Part shown: positions 21,765 through 27,657 of the stretch, in pieces | How positions within the stretch are numbered: the stretch's first letter is position 1 | Layout: the number at the start of each line of letters is the position of its first letter | Notes under the pieces: model-generated | Database searches by the model: none | What the model was told of the DNA's origin: nothing | What the model saw: only the letters and a program-made list of their open reading frames with translations | Assembly (NCBI GenBank): GCA_963825525.1 | Contig: CAWGTN010000002.1 | Coordinates: 384,001 to 448,000 of the forward strand | DNA length: 64,000 nucleotides | Reading direction: 5' to 3' | Source of the DNA: an uncultured Chloroflexia bacterium | GTDB taxonomy: Bacteria > Chloroflexota > Limnocylindria > QHBO01 | Translations under genes and position numbers: made by a program

Positions 21765-22337
21765 ATGAACCTCGACGGACTCAAGGTCGCCGTGCTGGTG
21801 ACCGATGGTTACGAGCCAAGCGAGCTGACGGAGCCGGTCGCCGCCCTGCAGCAGGCGGGAGCGACCACCACGATCATCTCGAACCACGACGGCACCATCA
21901 CTGGGAAGACTGATGCCGACACCGCGCAGGTCGACCTCACCCTCGACGGGGCCGATGCTGCCGAGTTCGACGCATTGCTGATCCCCGGCGGCACGAAGAA
22001 TCCCGACACAATGCGACAGGAGCCGAAGGCGGTCGATTTCGTGCGCGCCATGTTCGACGCGAAGAAGCCGATGGCCTCCATCTGCCACGGCCCGTGGATG
22101 CTCATCGAGGCCGACGTCGTGCGCGGCCGCCGCGTGACGAGCTACCCCTCGCTGAGGACGGACCTGCGCAACGCCGGCGCCGAGTGGACCGATGAGGAGG
22201 TCGTCGTCGACCAGGGCCTCGTCACGGCCCGCACGCCGAAGGATCTCCCCGCGTTCAACGCCAAGATGGTCGAGGAGTTCGGCGAGGGCACCCACGACCG
22301 CCGATCGACGGCCGCCGAGCCCGTCAGCGCCGGCTGA
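21765..22337 (+). CDS. PfpI/DJ-1 family protein
   Basis: ELTEP, DALLIPGG, SICHGPW; CAGGAG RBS. Confidence 0.92.
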   Translation: MNLDGLKVAVLVTDGYEPSELTEPVAALQQAGATTTIISNHDGTITGKTDADTAQVDLTLDGADAAEFDALLIPGGTKNPDTMRQEPKAVDFVRAMFDAKKPMASICHGPWMLIEADVVRGRRVTSYPSLRTDLRNAGAEWTDEEVVVDQGLVTARTPKDLPAFNAKMVEEFGEGTHDRRSTAAEPVSAG

Positions 22338-22446
22338 CGATCGGGAGGCGGGATGTCGAGCGCGTCCTCGCCCGAGTCGCGCACCGAGGCACCGCAGCAA
22401 GCGCCTGCCGAGGGTCGTCCGGCGCCGTGATCGGTATCCTTGCGGC

Positions 22447-22795
22447 ATGCCAGCCATTCCCAGCGGGACGGTCACCTTCGTGTTCACCGATATCGAAGGC
22501 AGCACGCAGCTTCTGAAGCGGCTTGGAGACCGCTACGCCGAGCTCCTGGGCCAGCATCGGCGCCTGCTGCGCGCCACCTTTGCCGAGCATGACGGCCAGG
22601 AGATCGACACGCAGGGCGATGCGTTCTTCTATTCGTTCGCACGTGCCCGCCAGGCAGTGGCCGCGGCGGTCCAGGCCCAGCGAGCGCACGACGAAGCCTC
22701 GTGGCCCGACGACGTCGTCCTCCGCGTCCGGATGGGCCTCCACACCGGTGAGCCTCTCGTCGGTGAGGAGGGGTACACCGGCCTCGATGTCGTCC
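22447..22795 (+). pseudogene. Class III adenylate/guanylate cyclase, 3'-truncated
   Basis: GTVTFVFTDIEGST, DTQGDAFF, VRMGLHTGEP, YTGLDVV, then similarity stops before the expected RAAR catalytic segment. Confidence 0.75.
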
Positions 22796-22843
22796 TGACC
22801 GACGATGACTTGGCAGTGGGCGCCCAGCCCATCCGACATGTTT

Positions 22844-22870
22844 GCGGTGCTTTCCACCGGATGGACCGCA
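22844..22870. promoter_or_regulatory. Palindromic box, candidate response-regulator site
   Basis: GCGGTG-CTTT-CCACCGGATGG; related to GCGGTG-AG-CCACCGGATGG at 26009-26027. Confidence 0.4.
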
Positions 22871-22933
22871 CTTGTCACGATGCTGCCAAAGAGTCGGGGC
22901 TCGGCCCTGCACGGACCAGTACGTGGAACGCCG

Positions 22934-23527
22934 CTACTCGGTGCCCTCGAGCCAGCCCTCTCGCAGCGCCCTGGCCGTCAGCTCCGTGCGTGAGGCGACG
23001 CCCGTTCGTTCGAACAGTCGCCGCAGATGCGATTCCACGGTTCTCGAGCTGATGCCAAGCCGCCCGCCGATCTCATCGTTCGACGAGCCGCTGACGATGA
23101 GGTCGACCACCTCCCGCTCCCGGGCCGATAGCCGGACCCCACCTCCGGGCCTGACGCCGAAGGCCAGTCCGCCCGAGGCCGCCCGCCGAATCGCGTCCAG
23201 CAGCTCCGACGTGGGGGCGGTCTTGACCACAAACCCGGCCGCGCCGAGCCGCATGGCGGCATCGGCGTATTGAGGGTAGTCGTACGACGTCAGGCAGACC
23301 ACGGCCGGCAATGCCGAGTCACCGCGGTCGCGCAGGAGCTCGAATCCGGACTCCTGCCCGAGGCGGAGGTCGAGCAGCAGGACGTCGACCGAGCCATCGA
23401 GGAGCGGGCGCAGCTCGTCCAGCGATCCAGCCACTCCGGCGATCTGCATGTCATCGGCGCGATCGATGATGGCGGCCGTTCCCTCGCGCACCAGCGGATG
23501 GTCGTCGACGACCGCGACCCGGATCAT
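22934..23527 (-). CDS. NarL/LuxR family response regulator
   Basis: VVDDH, LLDLRL, LTSY, FVVK receiver; LSARERE...SRTVESH HTH. Confidence 0.95.
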   Translation of the reverse strand: MIRVAVVDDHPLVREGTAAIIDRADDMQIAGVAGSLDELRPLLDGSVDVLLLDLRLGQESGFELLRDRGDSALPAVVCLTSYDYPQYADAAMRLGAAGFVVKTAPTSELLDAIRRAASGGLAFGVRPGGGVRLSAREREVVDLIVSGSSNDEIGGRLGISSRTVESHLRRLFERTGVASRTELTARALREGWLEGTE

Positions 23528-23539
23528 CGGCTCACTGGC

Positions 23540-25950
23540 TCATTGCGGGCGCCACTCGAGAGCGACACGCGTGCCGCCGCTCGGCCAGCGACGAACGTCG
23601 AGCAGGGCGCCGATCTGCTCCGCCCGCTGCTGCATGTTGACGAGCCCGAAGTGGCCATCGCCCGGCGCCTCCTCGGTGGCGTCGGAGCCGATCCCGTCGC
23701 CGGCGTCGTCGATGGCCAGCGTGACCCGTCCATCGGCGCTCACGTCGTAGCGGACCGCGATCGGCGGCTTGCCATGCTTGATCGCATTGGTCAGCGCTTC
23801 CTGGGCGACGCGGAAGACCGCCAGCTCCACGTCGGCGGGCGGGCGCGAGGCGTCGGAGCGCTCGAGCTTCACCACGCCGCCGGCAAGGGGCTCGACACGC
23901 TCGACGAGCCATTCGAGCGCGGCTCCGGCACCCAGATCGTCGAGGATCGGCAGGCGCAGGTCCCCGACCACGGAGCGCAGCTTCGTCGCGACCTCGCGTG
24001 CCTCGGCGGCTTCGGCTTCGTGGCCACCCTCGTCGAGGGTACGGACCAGCATGGTGAGCTGCTGGAGCGCGTCGTCGTGGAGGTCCGCGGCCAGGCGAGC
24101 GCGCTCCGTCTCCGCGGCCGCGACCGCGACGTCGCGCTGGAGCTGGGTCCTGACTGCCAGTCCAACGAGCGGATTGATCGCGAGGTAGCGCCAGACCACG
24201 ATCCCGCCAAGCCAGCCGGCAAGGATCAGCCCGCCGGCCGAGTTCGGTACGAGGACCAGCGACGCGACAAGTGGTGTTGCGGCCACCGCAAGCGTCTCGA
24301 GGCGCCACGCCATCGCCCTCGGTTCGGTCCGATCAGCGAAGGCGACCGGGATGCCCGGGATGAGTGGGATCAATCCCACCAGAGGGACGAAGAAGCGGGA
24401 TTGGAGCAGGGCGGTGATGACGAACAGGCCGGCGAGGCCGACCGAAGCCATGAAGAGGCGTGCCGCAAGTGATGGATCGGAGTGGCGCGACGCGAGCAGA
24501 TGCGCGACCGACAATCCGGCAAAGGCGGCCGGCAGCAACAGGATCGGTTGACCTTCGGAGTACGACCCCCAGGCGGCGGGCACCAGGAGGATCGGAACGG
24601 CGACGGCTGCTGCCAGACGGAATGGCCGCATCGGTCCAGTCGCTGCCGAACACGCCCTGGCGCAGCCCGATCCAGATCACGAGGCCGACGGCAGAACCGA
24701 GGACGATCGCCCACTCCGACTGGTGGGTGAGAGAGATGACCAGTGCGAGGCCGATGAGCGCGAGGGTGAGCAGGTCCCGACGCTCGCGATCGAGCGGGGA
24801 CGCCGTCGGATCCGGCGAGATCCGCACCGATCGCATGCGCGCGAACCCCGCGCTGACCCGTCGCATTCCTCGCTCCCACGGAAGCGCAAAGCTGGTGGCA
24901 ACAGCCCCGAACGCCACCATGGGCCACACCGGCATGACGTCGCTCGGCACGATGGCAACGAGGCCGATGGCGGGCAGGATGCCCAGCGCAAACAGCTGCC
25001 CGCGCTCGCGTGCGCTGCGCTTCCCGGTCAGTCCGGCAAGCACCCCGGGCGCGAATGCAACGGCGCCATAGAGCACGGCGATCGGGCCTCGCTCGTCCGG
25101 TGACAGCGTCGGCGTCGTCATGTGCTGCACCACGAGCAGCGCCGCCACCACGGCGGCTCCGCCAGTGATCGCCAGTCCCGCCCGCCTACGGCCCTGAGAC
25201 GACATGTGGTCGACGAGTCCCATGCCCAGGAGCACGGCCACAGCAAGCGTGGTCGCCCAGGTCGCGGCGACGCCGACCCCGCTACCGACTTCGACGACCG
25301 GGACCAGCAGGAGCGGCAACGCCACGGCCACAGCGGCGACGAACGCCAAGCGCCGTCCCGCAGCGCCCATCAGTCCGCGGAGGAGGAGATACGCGACGAT
25401 GGCGGCCAGCAGCAGGCCGAACCCCACGGCGTAGATGTCGGTGGCGAGCGTGCTCTCGAGCCACTGGCGCTCCATCATTCCGTACCCGTACACCACGACC
25501 CCGCGCTGGTCGCCCTCGAACGCGCCTGTCTTCGTAGACGTCGCCCACGATGATGCCGGCGATGCGGCCGGATGAGATCGCCTCGATCGGGATGGACATG
25601 GCGTCGCCGTATTCCGAGTGCATGACGACCTCCCCGACGCCAGGCGAATCCAGCGTCGATACGGACTCAACCGGGGCACCGTCGACCGTGGTCAGGGACA
25701 CGACGCGCGAGCCGGGGTAGATGCCGTTGCGCGCGGCGTTCCCATCAGGCGTGACGGACACGACGAAGACGCCCGGGAGGGTCGCATCCGCGAATCCGGG
25801 CAAGGGCATCATCGCGGCGGCCTGCGATCCCTCCGCGAGCTCGAGCCCGATGGCGACGCGGCCGTTCGCCCACAACGCGACGCTCGACAGCACGGCGCCG
25901 GTCGCGATGAGGATCGCCAGGACGTCGCGCCAGGTGGGTCGCAGCGGCAT
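23540..25950 (-). CDS. Polytopic sensor histidine kinase (HisKA_3) with PDZ-like loop; frameshifts near 25525 and 24618
   Basis: Joined ORFs 25282..25998, 24333..25679 and 23540..24631; ERARLAADLHD, QEALTNAIKHG, DDAGDG, HFGL; PDZ-like VVSVTPDGNAARNGIYPGSRVVSL. Confidence 0.85.
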
Positions 25951-25986
25951 GCTCGGACCATACCAGCGCTCCATCGGCCCACCAAT

Positions 25987-26027
25987 GCGGTAGATCACCT
26001 AATCGGAAGCGGTGAGCCACCGGATGG
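25987..26027. promoter_or_regulatory. Tandem GCGGT-N4-CACC boxes, 22-bp period, in divergent promoter
   Basis: GCGGTAGATCACC (25987) and GCGGTGAGCCACC (26009). Confidence 0.5.
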
Positions 26028-26075
26028 GCGTCGGCTCATCTCACGGTCACCATTGGCTGCCGAGGAGGTGAATCG

Positions 26076-26171
26076 ATGCAGACCCTTCGCGCGTCCGCCA
26101 TCGCGGTCCCGTTCGTCGCCCTCGCCGTGCTGGTGGCGCTGCTCTCTCTGATCGTCGGGCCGGGGGCCTAG
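26076..26171 (+). CDS. 31-aa hydrophobic peptide MQTLRASAIAVPFVALAVLVALLSLIVGPGA
   Basis: GAGGAGGTG RBS 5 nt before ATG, GC3-rich codons, fills an intergenic gap; not in ORF track. Confidence 0.75.
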   Translation: MQTLRASAIAVPFVALAVLVALLSLIVGPGA

Positions 26172-26202
26172 GCGTCTTTGCCGGCTAAGCACCGAGATTC
26201 GG

Positions 26203-26631
26203 CTAGGCGGGCGAGGCGTCCCCGATTTGACGGCCTTCACCTTCGCAGCCCCAGCCGATCCTTGGCTGCGGACGGCCACCGATCAAGGGTCCGTCGCGTT
26301 CGACGAACACGATGAGCTGCTCGTTCGGTGTCCCCGCGACGTCGCCAACTTCGCCGTCGGGCGGCGGCACGCACCAGCACTCGGAGTAGCCTGCGTTCCC
26401 GTTCATCGACGTCCCGTAGGAGTAGCGCCAGCTTGGACGGATGCCAGCAGCCTCGAGCGCCGCGCTCGCCTCTTCGGCGCTGAGTCCGGTGATCGGAGGC
26501 ACTTCCCTGTCGCCAAGCACCTCATCGGCAGCCGGCGGGTCCTGGCAAGCCAAACCGCTCTCTCCGATCCCGAGCCCGCACGCCGTCAGCACCGTGAACA
26601 GGCCGATGAGCAACCCGACTCGCACGACCAT
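26203..26631 (-). CDS. Cys-containing lipoprotein with PASTA-like segment
   Basis: LTAC lipobox; VPPITGLSAEEASAALEAAGI; CWC motif. Confidence 0.65.
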   Translation of the reverse strand: MVVRVGLLIGLFTVLTACGLGIGESGLACQDPPAADEVLGDREVPPITGLSAEEASAALEAAGIRPSWRYSYGTSMNGNAGYSECWCVPPPDGEVGDVAGTPNEQLIVFVERDGPLIGGRPQPRIGWGCEGEGRQIGDASPA

Positions 26632-26869: not shown

Positions 26870-27103
26870 ATGCCGTCCCGTCCCACGCTCTATGTCCGCC
26901 ACGGGTGCCACCTGTGCGAGGACGCGAGCGTCCTTCTCGACGCCATGCTGGGAGCCGATGGATGGGACGCGGTCGACATCGAGGCCGATGACGACCTCCT
27001 CGTGCGCTACGCGCACCGAATCCCCGTGCTCGCCGTCGACGGCGAGGATCGGTGCGAACTGATGATCACCCGTCCCGACGTCGAGGCGGCGCTGGCCCGA
27101 TGA
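26870..27103 (+). CDS. Glutaredoxin-like protein (DUF836)
   Basis: GCHLCEDA, RIPVL. Confidence 0.85.
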   Translation: MPSRPTLYVRHGCHLCEDASVLLDAMLGADGWDAVDIEADDDLLVRYAHRIPVLAVDGEDRCELMITRPDVEAALAR

Positions 27104-27657
27104 TCCCCGCGGTGCTGCGGCGACGTCGGTGGAGCCTCGCATGGCTCATCGGCATCATCGGCCTGGCGATCGTATTCGGCGTGCTGGCGACCATCCCGCT
27201 GCTGCGCGGCACGCCCGACGGTCGGAGTGGGCCCCTGGTCGGCCAGCCGGCGCCTGAATTCCGGCTCGAGGACCTCGCGGGCCGCACCTGGTCCCTCGAT
27301 GAGGCCGATGGCCGCCTGGTCTGGGTCAACTTCTGGGCCACGAGCTGCGAGCCATGCCGCACCGAGATGCCGGCCATGCAACGCCTGGCGGACGCCTACC
27401 CCGACGAGCTGCTCATCCTTGGGATCGATTGGGGCGAGGGACGCGACGCTGTCACAGACTTCGTCGACCGCTACGGCGTCGAGTATCCGATCCTGCTGGA
27501 CCCCACTCTCGAGACCTACTACCGCTGGGCGGGAACGGACGGCCTTCCACGCCACTACTTCATCGGCGCCGAGGGGACCGTCCTGCGAGAGGTGATCGGC
27601 CCGCTCGATCCGGCACGCATGGTGACGATCGTCGAGGAGCTACTGGAGGGGGCGTGA
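27100..27657 (+). CDS. TlpA/ResA-like thiol-disulfide reductase
   Basis: N-terminal TM, VNFWATSCEPCRTEMP, GLP. Confidence 0.9.
   Translation: MIPAVLRRRRWSLAWLIGIIGLAIVFGVLATIPLLRGTPDGRSGPLVGQPAPEFRLEDLAGRTWSLDEADGRLVWVNFWATSCEPCRTEMPAMQRLADAYPDELLILGIDWGEGRDAVTDFVDRYGVEYPILLDPTLETYYRWAGTDGLPRHYFIGAEGTVLREVIGPLDPARMVTIVEELLEGA

Follow-up and report, generated by a model that had tools for sequence, protein, structure and literature searches.

The small open reading frame (ORF) which diverges from a sensor histidine kinase gene in the window, i.e. in the 64,000-nucleotide stretch of DNA from an uncultured Chloroflexia bacterium that was analysed here, is shown by comparison with related genomes to be a genuine gene: it is conserved, linked to the kinase, coupled to an ABC exporter gene and retained after loss of that gene. 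Its predicted product appears to represent a new, undescribed peptide family which is specific to the Limnocylindria and has no counterpart in Pfam or NCBIfam. The role which we favour, at a little below an even chance, is that of a two-component-linked single-pass membrane protein which would act on the kinase and, where one is present, on the exporter.

The first-pass annotation had reported a 31-residue peptide without Trp or Cys and a ribosome binding site in front of its gene, and all of these features were confirmed (product MQTLRASAIAVPFVALAVLVALLSLIVGPGA; Table 1). A 31-codon ORF by itself is meaningless in DNA of 68% GC. The present one appears to be more than chance, as its position, length, ribosome site and codon pattern are all kept in relatives. 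The peptide is predicted to consist of an N-terminal MQTLR, a hydrophobic helix of about 21 residues (approximately residues 7-27) and a tail of 3-4 residues, and it carries no charged or polar motif hinting at a binding mode. It gave no match against Pfam at E<=0.01, and 13 members of the family gave none against NCBIfam at E<=10; neither the MgrB nor the KdpF family was matched in these searches. The ESM Atlas returned just unnamed clusters of 30-36 aa labelled 'hypothetical protein' (best 0.96), which are of low recognition value and provided no lead. Among the runs listed as carrying the 2.8-kb stretch around the locus, there was no RNA run.

Table 1. Positions of the predicted features in the window (numbered from its first nucleotide).
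Feature	Position	Strand	Remarks
NarL/LuxR-family response regulator (Response_reg + GerE)	22934..23527	-	orthologues 53-86% identical, downstream of kinase in relatives
Sensor histidine kinase, 802 aa if intact	23540..25950	-	TM1, PDZ-like ectodomain, ~11-13 hydrophobic segments, HisKA_3, HATPase_c; start codon 25948-25950
Extra bases interrupting kinase	one near 25528-25530, one near 24616-24617
Divergent candidate control region, 125 bp	25951..26075	.	conserved blocks in alignments of 15 and 26 loci
Block GACCATACCAG	25957-25967		adjoins kinase start
Block CACCAATGCGGTAGATCACCTAA	25980-26002		contains imperfect inverted repeat
Block CCGGATGG	26020-26027
Shine-Dalgarno GAGGAGGTG	26062..26070	+	5 nt 5' of small-ORF ATG
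Small ORF, 31 codons + TAG	26076..26171	+	predicted single-pass membrane protein; ATG at 26076, TAG 26169-26171

The window belongs to a metagenome-assembled genome of Candidatus Limnocylindria. The small ORF was found in 23 of the 63 genomes of the genus (E<=4e-13), nearly always divergent from the orthologous kinase. At all 14 of the first genus loci, being those with upstream DNA, an orthologous ORF of 28-33 aa was present, and this length is constant in relatives. The ribosome site GGAGGTG is kept with equal spacing in 21/22 genus loci and is weaker in one subclade (L088-L090, L105). For codons 2-24, the pN/pS ratio over 22 loci was 0.26 (0.18 after Jukes-Cantor correction), while four of the other five reading frames gave 1.5-4.0 and one antisense frame 0.43; the column entropy at codon positions 1, 2 and 3 was 0.39, 0.16 and 1.09, respectively. 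The core of the ORF is under purifying selection (pN/pS ~0.25). The last seven codons are nearly neutral (pN/pS 0.90), and the conserved portion of the peptide comprises the N-terminus and the hydrophobic helix, with a hypervariable tail. In terms of mean column identity the peptide (74%) is better conserved than the kinase (52%). It is also free-standing: all 46 matches among 1.84 billion representatives were proteins of 29-74 aa in which the matching part is C-terminal, with the one exception of a weakly matching repeat protein of 169 aa. The outcome which the earlier proposal had named as refuting it did not occur, as a small ORF conserved in position and at the codon level is present at the loci of homologous kinases.

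Linkage to the kinase was observed in two overlapping sets of loci. Kinase parts lie divergently upstream of the small ORF in 21 of the 24 genus loci and in 32 of the 33 usable loci of a species-wide scan, from which L103 was left out of the context counts, being cut by a contig end. The adjacency is not absolute, since at three genus loci (G007, G064, G076) and at one locus of the scan (L094) the peptide occurs and a kinase is absent from the surrounding 1.4-4 kb. At the loci of more distant kinase homologues from a neighbouring family (five loci, L040-L044), tblastn gave no match to the peptide, and no hydrophobic small ORF starting with ATG was seen in divergent orientation within 500 nt. 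A Eubacteriales match in the scan (L107) was dropped, as it is not an ORF of this kind. Co-folding of the peptide (alignment of 18 rows) with the sensor region of the kinase, taken as residues 1-640 of its G002 orthologue (alignment of 17 rows), scored 0.00, which is evidence neither way.

The kinase had been described earlier as a HisKA_3 protein of about 800 residues with a transmembrane segment, a PDZ-like loop and many further transmembrane segments. The kinase domains are indeed present; the single ORF is not, as the kinase gene in the window reads in three frames (25950 to ~25528, ~25527 to ~24617 and 24631 to 23540). The last piece is the only one with HATPase_c (E 5.9e-9) and HisKA_3; the latter, whose 23.4 bits (E 9.1e-5) here fall slightly short of the cut-off (24), is found again in the orthologues, which are single open frames of 796-865 aa within the genus. 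Logan contigs from four soil runs of three studies are each one base shorter at 24616/24617 and at 25528/25530. As both bases are absent from the contigs of all four runs, they are most likely errors of the four-contig assembly or private to the strain; without them the kinase reads through 802 aa, and the gene is probably intact in nature. The many transmembrane segments are supported by a hydropathy scan of an intact orthologue. The regulator was also assigned correctly (Response_reg, E 7.8e-17; GerE/LuxR, E 1.2e-15), and the locus has both the kinase domains and the receiver/GerE regulator of a HisKA_3 / NarL-LuxR two-component system.

The PDZ-like nature of the ectodomain received moderate support. 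An AlphaFold2 model of kinase residues 1-141 had a mean pLDDT of 84.4. Among the matches listed by Foldseek for the ectodomain model, PDZ domains occurred throughout, but the best E-value was just 5.5e-3; with VIA-align, PDZ was found in all 50 among the matches listed (Z <=6.0 over 62-85 residues). The Pfam PDZ models match only one relative, L098, and this below the cut-off (E 4.4e-4). Residues G35 and V32 of the ectodomain, which are invariant in 19 sequences, lie in a hydrophobic-Gly-hydrophobic stretch which may be the carboxylate-binding loop of a PDZ domain. In comparison to the G002 reference, the kinase is 27% identical in the ectodomain, 40% in the transmembrane bundle and 82% in DHp+CA, and the ectodomain is its fastest-evolving part.

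The 125-bp gap between the divergent kinase and small-ORF start codons was measured correctly in the first-pass annotation, and its conserved blocks may play the role of promoter or regulator box. Scanning of 25800-26400 revealed neither a sigma-70 consensus promoter nor a terminator, and Rfam gave no match at E<=1 on 25700-26500. In a genome search, the block CCAATGCGGNAGATCAC was exact solely at its own locus; one site with one mismatch and 21 with two or three mismatches were obtained, which are counts by letters alone, and so no regulon is claimed from them.

In relatives, the small ORF is coupled to an exporter. Its stop overlaps an in-frame ATG or GTG opening the ABC N-terminus in 19/20 ABC-type loci, where two novel membrane proteins are encoded behind a DrrA/PmtA-like ATPase; the similarity of this ATPase to the PSM exporter PmtA has an E-value of 5.3e-32 and falls below the cut-off. 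When the presence of the ABC gene was placed on the kinase tree (26 rows), seven changes were needed, of which at least four are forced by well-supported branches; the row L088 is an artefact of an ORF over-extended into the regulator (branch ~10). At least four independent losses of the exporter left the small ORF and its ribosome site in place. Some of the losses are very recent; the kinases of L087 and L091 are almost identical, and retention there is therefore uninformative. At 12 loci without the ABC gene the core had a pN/pS of 0.24, as against 0.33 at 10 loci with it. In the window's own genome (92% completeness), neither permease gave a tblastn match and the best ATPase match is just 35% identical. 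In ABC-less loci a saccharopine-dehydrogenase-like gene of equal orientation often follows ~140 nt downstream of the small ORF; in the window the gene next to it is convergent.

A related group of 31-aa ORFs was found in a second module, where it follows a PspC-domain gene and diverges from a PspC-domain kinase and a LuxR regulator at 6/6 enlarged loci. The profile of this group matched the six-frame translation of the window's genome with an E-value of 1.6e-4 and had no further match <0.1, i.e. no second small ORF was found there by this profile; the reverse profile cross-match between both groups gave 2e-5 to 5e-3. A PspC-domain ORF is present in the window's genome at C2:841076.

On this basis, the small ORF would be the first cistron of a transcription unit which diverges from the kinase-regulator operon and shares the conserved 125-bp control region with it; owing to this common region, the LuxR-type regulator probably acts on the unit. 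In the ancestral state, the stop of the small ORF would have overlapped the start of the DrrA-like ABC exporter ATPase gene, so that peptide and exporter would be made together. The peptide would stay resident in the membrane as an accessory of the signalling module, where its contact partner may be the many-helix sensor part of the kinase, for feedback or as a connector in the way of MgrB, SafA or ScrA, and also the exporter where one exists. Its membrane insertion and orientation, its control by the regulator and its physical target are putative. The earlier annotation had offered two roles, a pheromone precursor or an intramembrane kinase modulator. The modulator survives and is preferred here, as the peptide, still under purifying selection, remained beside the kinase when the ABC genes were repeatedly lost, and a related group is found in a second HisKA_3/LuxR module. 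The earlier annotation did not recognise the kinase frameshifts, the affiliation of the organism with Chloroflexota or the ancestral coupling, at the level of translation, to an ABC exporter.

A further proposal, which we regard as quite unlikely, is that the peptide tail would be a membrane-tethered ligand read by the PDZ-like ectodomain of the kinase. The PDZ fold typically binds the C-termini of peptides. The C-terminal tail of 3-4 residues would emerge on the outside of the membrane, where the ectodomain is predicted to start directly after the first transmembrane helix. By joint diversification, each lineage would have its own cognate pair of tail and ectodomain, and the kinase would report occupancy, displacement or clipping of the tail, for which damage to the envelope, competition by the C-termini of other proteins or the activity of the exporter are possible triggers. 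In an exploratory partial Mantel test, which is over-optimistic for related sequences, the distances between tails tracked those between ectodomains (r 0.27, p 0.004) and did not track those between catalytic domains. Two further observations are compatible with such a tail ligand: the ectodomain keeps an invariant Gly-containing loop in spite of 27% identity, and the tail is constant in length at a pN/pS of ~0.9.

The peptide may instead be a mere small subunit of the ABC exporter, comparable to KdpF or AcrZ, with the kinase link reflecting only a regulon and with a leftover in ABC-less genomes. The 4-nt overlap with the ATPase gene fits a pure subunit equally well, the gene order of a DrrA/PmtA-like ATPase and two membrane proteins agrees with it, and KdpF (29 aa) is a known stabilising subunit according to the excerpted text of PMC12648545. 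We nevertheless find this rather unlikely, because the core is not relaxed in ABC-less loci, at least four independent ABC losses kept both ORF and ribosome site, the window's genome has no permease homologue by tblastn, and the module of the related small-ORF group is without an ABC transporter. The same overlap, together with the very strong ribosome site of the small ORF and a weak or absent one for the next gene, could also indicate a regulatory leader whose translation or membrane targeting controls the downstream gene while the peptide is functionless; the saccharopine-dehydrogenase-like gene of ABC-less loci would suit such control. Conservation of the core as amino-acid sequence makes this very improbable; moreover, the convergent neighbour in the window leaves nothing downstream to regulate, and terminator, attenuator-like structure and Rfam match were all not found in the scans described above.

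Export of the peptide or a fragment of it, perhaps by the ABC exporter, and sensing from outside by the ectodomain would make it the precursor of a pheromone or autoinducer. In architecture, the locus is reminiscent of quorum-sensing modules of the peptide/ABC/two-component kind, its ATPase in relatives is PmtA-like below the cut-off, the ectodomain has a PDZ-like, peptide-binding type of fold, and the tail is hypervariable as in pherotype systems. Yet the peptide is nearly all one hydrophobic helix, conserved at the N-terminus and in the helix and not in the tail; a leader or cleavage motif is absent, genes for ComQ, AgrB or peptidase domains were not found among the scanned neighbours, and peptide and kinase persist through repeated exporter loss. 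The pheromone half of the earlier suggestion is thus unsupported, given the near-neutral C-terminal codons and no maturase family among the scanned neighbours, and we hold it to be very unlikely. Type I toxins are hydrophobic and about 30 aa long, and the size and hydrophobicity of the peptide would fit a membrane-active effector or toxin-like stress peptide, induced by the two-component system and not acting on it; the PspC domain and the ABC exporter also give the modules of the two small-ORF groups a flavour of envelope stress. Type I toxins, however, do not typically have a strong ribosome site of constitutive appearance or so strict a synteny with a kinase, and no antisense RNA feature was seen in the Rfam search, so that such an effector seems very improbable.

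Small membrane proteins which tune sensor kinases or transporters are known from few well-studied bacteria and are routinely overlooked by annotation. For the present candidate, an undescribed family, the signature obtained by comparison is unusually clean (constant position and length, strong ribosome site and codon-level selection), and its host class, Limnocylindria, is uncultured and globally common in soil. It is tied to two different HisKA_3/LuxR modules and marks an unusual PDZ-like kinase with ~12 membrane helices. If the modulation of the kinase is true, the MgrB-type principle would extend to Chloroflexota, in a compact three-part system open to reconstitution in a laboratory host. 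Should the tail be read by the PDZ-like domain, this would be a new route for feeding a signal into a histidine kinase.

Among known systems, three-component envelope-stress modules with a PspC-domain kinase, e.g. in Corynebacterium glutamicum, are cited in PMC9239133, and in the excerpted text of this survey a small ORF in PspC modules goes unmentioned. The related small-ORF group sits in such a module (PspC kinase and LuxR regulator, divergent PspC protein). The module of the window differs from it, as its kinase is PDZ-like with many transmembrane segments and has no PspC domain.

ComP of Bacillus is a HisKA_3-family kinase with many membrane helices, and the earlier analogy with it holds for architecture only. 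As in ComQXPA, a many-helix HisKA_3 kinase, a NarL/LuxR regulator and a small peptide gene share the locus, and the sensor part is variable whereas the catalytic part is conserved. ComX has a conserved isoprenylated Trp, the isoprenyl transferase ComQ is encoded adjacently and the peptide gene lies upstream in the kinase operon. In the present family, on the other hand, Trp is not conserved (1/13 and 1/18 aligned orthologues, at a variable tail position), the peptide is hydrophobic throughout, its gene is divergent from and not co-operonic with the kinase, and the host belongs to Chloroflexota. The earlier statement that no ComQ/AgrB-type maturase lies nearby agrees with the Pfam scans of the neighbours in the window and in relatives, where no prenyl-synthase family was found either. 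AgrD/AIP peptides require Cys (or Ser) for the thiolactone ring and an adjacent AgrB maturase; the peptide does not fit this type, as it has no Cys and the AgrB family was not found among the scanned neighbours.

According to the excerpted texts of PMC12648545, PMC8404706 and PMC12239555, MgrB, SafA and UgtS act on PhoQ and ScrA on SaeS, all being small single-pass membrane proteins, and MgrB exerts negative feedback on its kinase. The likeness lies in a very small size, in a single membrane helix and in genes that belong to a two-component regulon or adjoin it, with kinase targets in the membrane or periplasm. The observations bearing on an MgrB-like mode of action of our peptide are the conserved 125-bp region shared with the kinase operon and the conserved synteny. 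In sequence these proteins are unrelated to our peptide, of which hardly anything is predicted to lie outside the membrane; MgrB, by contrast, carries a Cys-containing region in the periplasm. Moreover, our peptide is encoded directly divergent from its kinase, contact with which is a proposal, and this kinase is of the HisKA_3 type with many transmembrane segments and a PDZ-like ectodomain.

KdpF is encoded by the first gene of a transporter operon, and the two-component genes kdpDE adjoin kdpFABC. A comparable arrangement, with a peptide of ~30 aa as first cistron of a transporter operon, is seen in 19/20 ABC-type loci of relatives, and the transporter is absent from the window's genome. KdpF (29 aa), which is part of the KdpFABC transporter complex in the excerpted text of PMC12648545, is hydrophobic and ~30 aa long like our peptide. 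Neither KdpF nor AcrZ, which acts on AcrAB-TolC, is homologous to our peptide, and the transporter here is a DrrA-like ABC exporter. The peptide described here differs from both, further, in that selection on it continues in genomes without the transporter.

The data establish that the ORF divergent from the sensor kinase is a genuine gene for a small membrane protein, linked to the kinase/regulator pair and, in its ancestral state, also to an exporter. An ORF of 28-33 aa in matching place and orientation was found in 14/14 of the early genus loci having DNA upstream of the kinase (a fifteenth ends at a contig edge and is outside this count), with AGGAGGTG lying 5-6 nt before its ATG. A profile of 13 of these ORFs matched 23 of the 63 genus genomes strongly (E<=4e-13), and at E<=0.01 it matched 11 of the 13 genomes with completeness of 90% or more and contamination of 5% or less. 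Across 22 loci the pN/pS of codons 2-24 was 0.26 (corrected 0.18) and most variation was carried by third codon positions (entropy 0.39/0.16/1.09 at positions 1/2/3); four of the five alternative reading frames gave 1.5-4.0 and the remaining one, antisense, 0.43. The 22-locus set includes G006 and G064 and the 14-locus set G034, genomes flagged as unpublished, without which 20 and 13 loci are left. The related loci belong to Candidatus Limnocylindria (Chloroflexota), in MAGs mostly from soil, and the stretch itself was found mainly in soil metagenomes.

The peptide was matched by no Pfam or NCBIfam family. Its profile found 46 matches at E<=1e-3 among 1.84 billion representative proteins; these are of 29-74 aa and match at their extreme C-terminus, a weak 169-aa repeat protein being the sole exception, which argues that the family is small, lineage-restricted and always free-standing. 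Conservation covers residues 1-24, with M1, R5, A10, P12, F13, A17 and L23 invariant in 18 sequences. Codons 25-31 showed a pN/pS of 0.90 (18 loci), the stop position being nonetheless held. Distance in this tail was weakly correlated with distance in the kinase ectodomain (Mantel r 0.22, p 0.018; r 0.27, p 0.004 when partial on catalytic-domain distance) and uncorrelated with catalytic-domain distance (r 0.03), but such tests are over-optimistic when sequences are related, and saturation is near in both regions, so the correlation is a lead only.

Features of the small-ORF locus and its surroundings
Feature	Position	Strand	Remarks
Cyclase-domain ORF	22192-23052	+	partial adenylate/guanylate cyclase catalytic domain, E 2.2e-8, profile positions 5-114 of 183
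Response regulator	22934-23527	-	receiver domain and GerE/LuxR helix-turn-helix
Sensor kinase	23540-25950	-	
PDZ-like ectodomain	within 25528-25950	-	kinase residues ~30-141; begins right after first membrane helix
Kinase start codon	25948-25950	-	125 bp separate kinase and small-ORF starts
Block GACGGTAGCAG	5-8 nt from kinase ATG		conserved in 26 loci
Block ACCAAT	control region		conserved in 26 loci
Inverted repeat GCGGGA-NN-TC[AC]CGC	control region		conserved in 26 loci; perfect in some lineages
Block CCGGATGG	control region		conserved in 26 loci
Block CATCGG	control region		conserved in 26 loci
Ribosome site GAGGAGGTG	26062-26070	+	5 nt ahead of ATG 26076
Small ORF	26076-26171	+	product MQTLRASAIAVPFVALAVLVALLSLIVGPGA
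Convergent neighbour, 142 aa	26203-26631	-	lipoprotein-like N-terminus; weak PASTA match, E 3.2e-3
TlpA-like thioredoxin and cupredoxin genes	27052-27657	+	after the 142-aa neighbour

The first-pass annotation had described the small ORF with its ribosome site, the intergenic gap, the regulator and a kinase in a single ORF; all of these stand except the last, as the kinase gene in the window is split over three frames. Alignment of the intact 777-aa orthologue from genome G023 placed the shifts near 25528 and 24617, neither in a long homopolymer. Genus orthologues of the kinase each fill one open frame of 796-865 aa; in one subclade the kinase is shorter, at 558 aa. Four soil runs, from three studies, yield Logan contigs that each have one base fewer at 24616/24617 and at 25528/25530, and the source assembly has 4 contigs, 2.58 Mb in all. 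On these grounds, the two extra bases are taken for errors of the assembly or a lesion private to this strain, and the natural gene is put at 802 aa. The same Logan contigs, of related strains, also lack 8 nt at 23529, where kinase stop and regulator start adjoin, and one codon (3 nt) at 24566 inside the kinase. Similar indel errors may affect other genes of this genome and could depress its completeness estimate. The cyclase-domain ORF extends into the regulator gene's 3' end and may have been truncated or frameshifted.

Hydropathy scanning of the intact kinase from genome G002 has shown one N-terminal helix, an ectodomain of ~140 residues and ~11-13 hydrophobic segments up to residue 622, directly followed by the dimerisation and catalytic domains. 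Relative to this kinase, identity stood at 82% over the catalytic part, 53% over TM1, 40% over the TM bundle and 27% over the ectodomain. Only PDZ domains matched the ectodomain model (pLDDT 84.4), with modest scores (Foldseek best E 5.5e-3, VIA Z <=6.0), and Pfam PDZ models matched one relative's kinase below cut-off. The best conserved ectodomain part is a Gly-containing loop (G30, V32, G35, L38). In the control region, the scan detected no consensus promoter or terminator; GACGGTAGCAG, in the kinase-strand reading, looks like an extended -10 element, and the kinase mRNA would then be leaderless.

The kinase lies divergently upstream of the peptide in 21/24 genus loci and in 32/33 usable loci of a scan with one genome per species, the two sets overlapping; the peptide occurs without an adjoining kinase in G007, G064, G076 and L094. 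On its other side, an ABC ATPase gene and then one for a membrane protein are found in 22 species-scan loci, and a saccharopine-dehydrogenase-like gene directly adjoins the peptide in eight; the window, G032, L090 and L105 have other neighbours. The genes for the 142-aa convergent protein, the TlpA-like thioredoxin and the cupredoxin were not conserved beside the small ORF in relatives. The ATPase is DrrA/PmtA-like, under curated cut-offs, and no family was matched by the two membrane proteins after it (343 and 315 aa). The peptide's TGA overlaps the in-frame ATG or GTG opening the ATPase (ATGA or GTGA) in 19/20 ABC-type loci; in the ancestral arrangement the peptide gene therefore headed the exporter operon, as a translationally coupled first cistron. 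As the dehydrogenase-like gene comes after the exporter genes in full loci, the ABC-less loci look like deletions. Two contigs of one long-read MAG (L081/L086) bear the whole locus in nearly identical form. The peptide-ABC locus also occurs, with an ATPase 87% identical to the Limnocylindria one, on a contig assigned to an actinobacterial Egibacteraceae MAG (L108), probably by mis-binning.

A tree was built by a quick method from the conserved C-terminal part of the kinase (26 rows, of which L088 is an artefact). The ABC label needed 7 changes on it, and well-supported branches force at least 4 of these; some losses (L087 vs L091) happened very recently and carry no weight. Core pN/pS was 0.24 in 12 ABC-less loci vs 0.33 in 10 ABC loci, so selection on the peptide is not relaxed after exporter loss. 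In the window's genome (91.8% complete) tblastn found neither permease, the best ATPase match was 35% identical, and 1.28 Mb separate the locus from the dehydrogenase-like gene.

Weaker profile matches with 32-codon open frames revealed a related 31-aa ORF, M[RH]AWRSVLVA[VL]PFV.GA..[VI]A[LV]LSA, whose ATG lies 3 nt past the stop of a PspC-domain gene (for example, L113:6362-6457). In six enlarged loci of this type (L112-L117, from G078, G022, G008, G009, G080 and G025) a LuxR-type regulator is found ~2.6-3.3 kb off on the opposite strand, and the gene between is a PspC-domain histidine kinase (Pfam, one locus). In six-frame translation of the window's genome, a profile of four such ORFs had the window peptide (E 1.6e-4) as its only match below E 0.1, the second-group ORF being absent there. 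Thus two different HisKA_3/LuxR modules each bear a family member on the divergent arm. A single PspC-domain ORF is present in the window's genome (contig C2:841076). Three-component envelope-stress systems are described as including PspC-domain kinases (PMC9239133); the part of that source consulted mentions no small ORF.

We tentatively favour, at a little short of an even chance, a peptide that would be a membrane-resident accessory acting on the kinase and, in loci that have one, the exporter. The first-pass annotation had offered an autoinduced pheromone precursor or an intramembrane kinase modulator, and only the latter half is retained; a pheromone is the least good fit among the rivals, given the conservation pattern and the repeated exporter loss. 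The other rival readings would make the peptide a pure transporter subunit, its ORF a leader ORF, or the peptide a membrane-active effector.

No paper on Limnocylindria two-component systems and no description of the peptide family was found in the main texts of the literature searched. The accessory reading likens the peptide to ScrA, which acts on SaeS. Small proteins acting on PhoQ (MgrB, SafA and UgtS) and on transporters (KdpF and AcrZ) are likewise comparable (PMC12648545). The peptide represents a new family, of a kind of small membrane protein already known.
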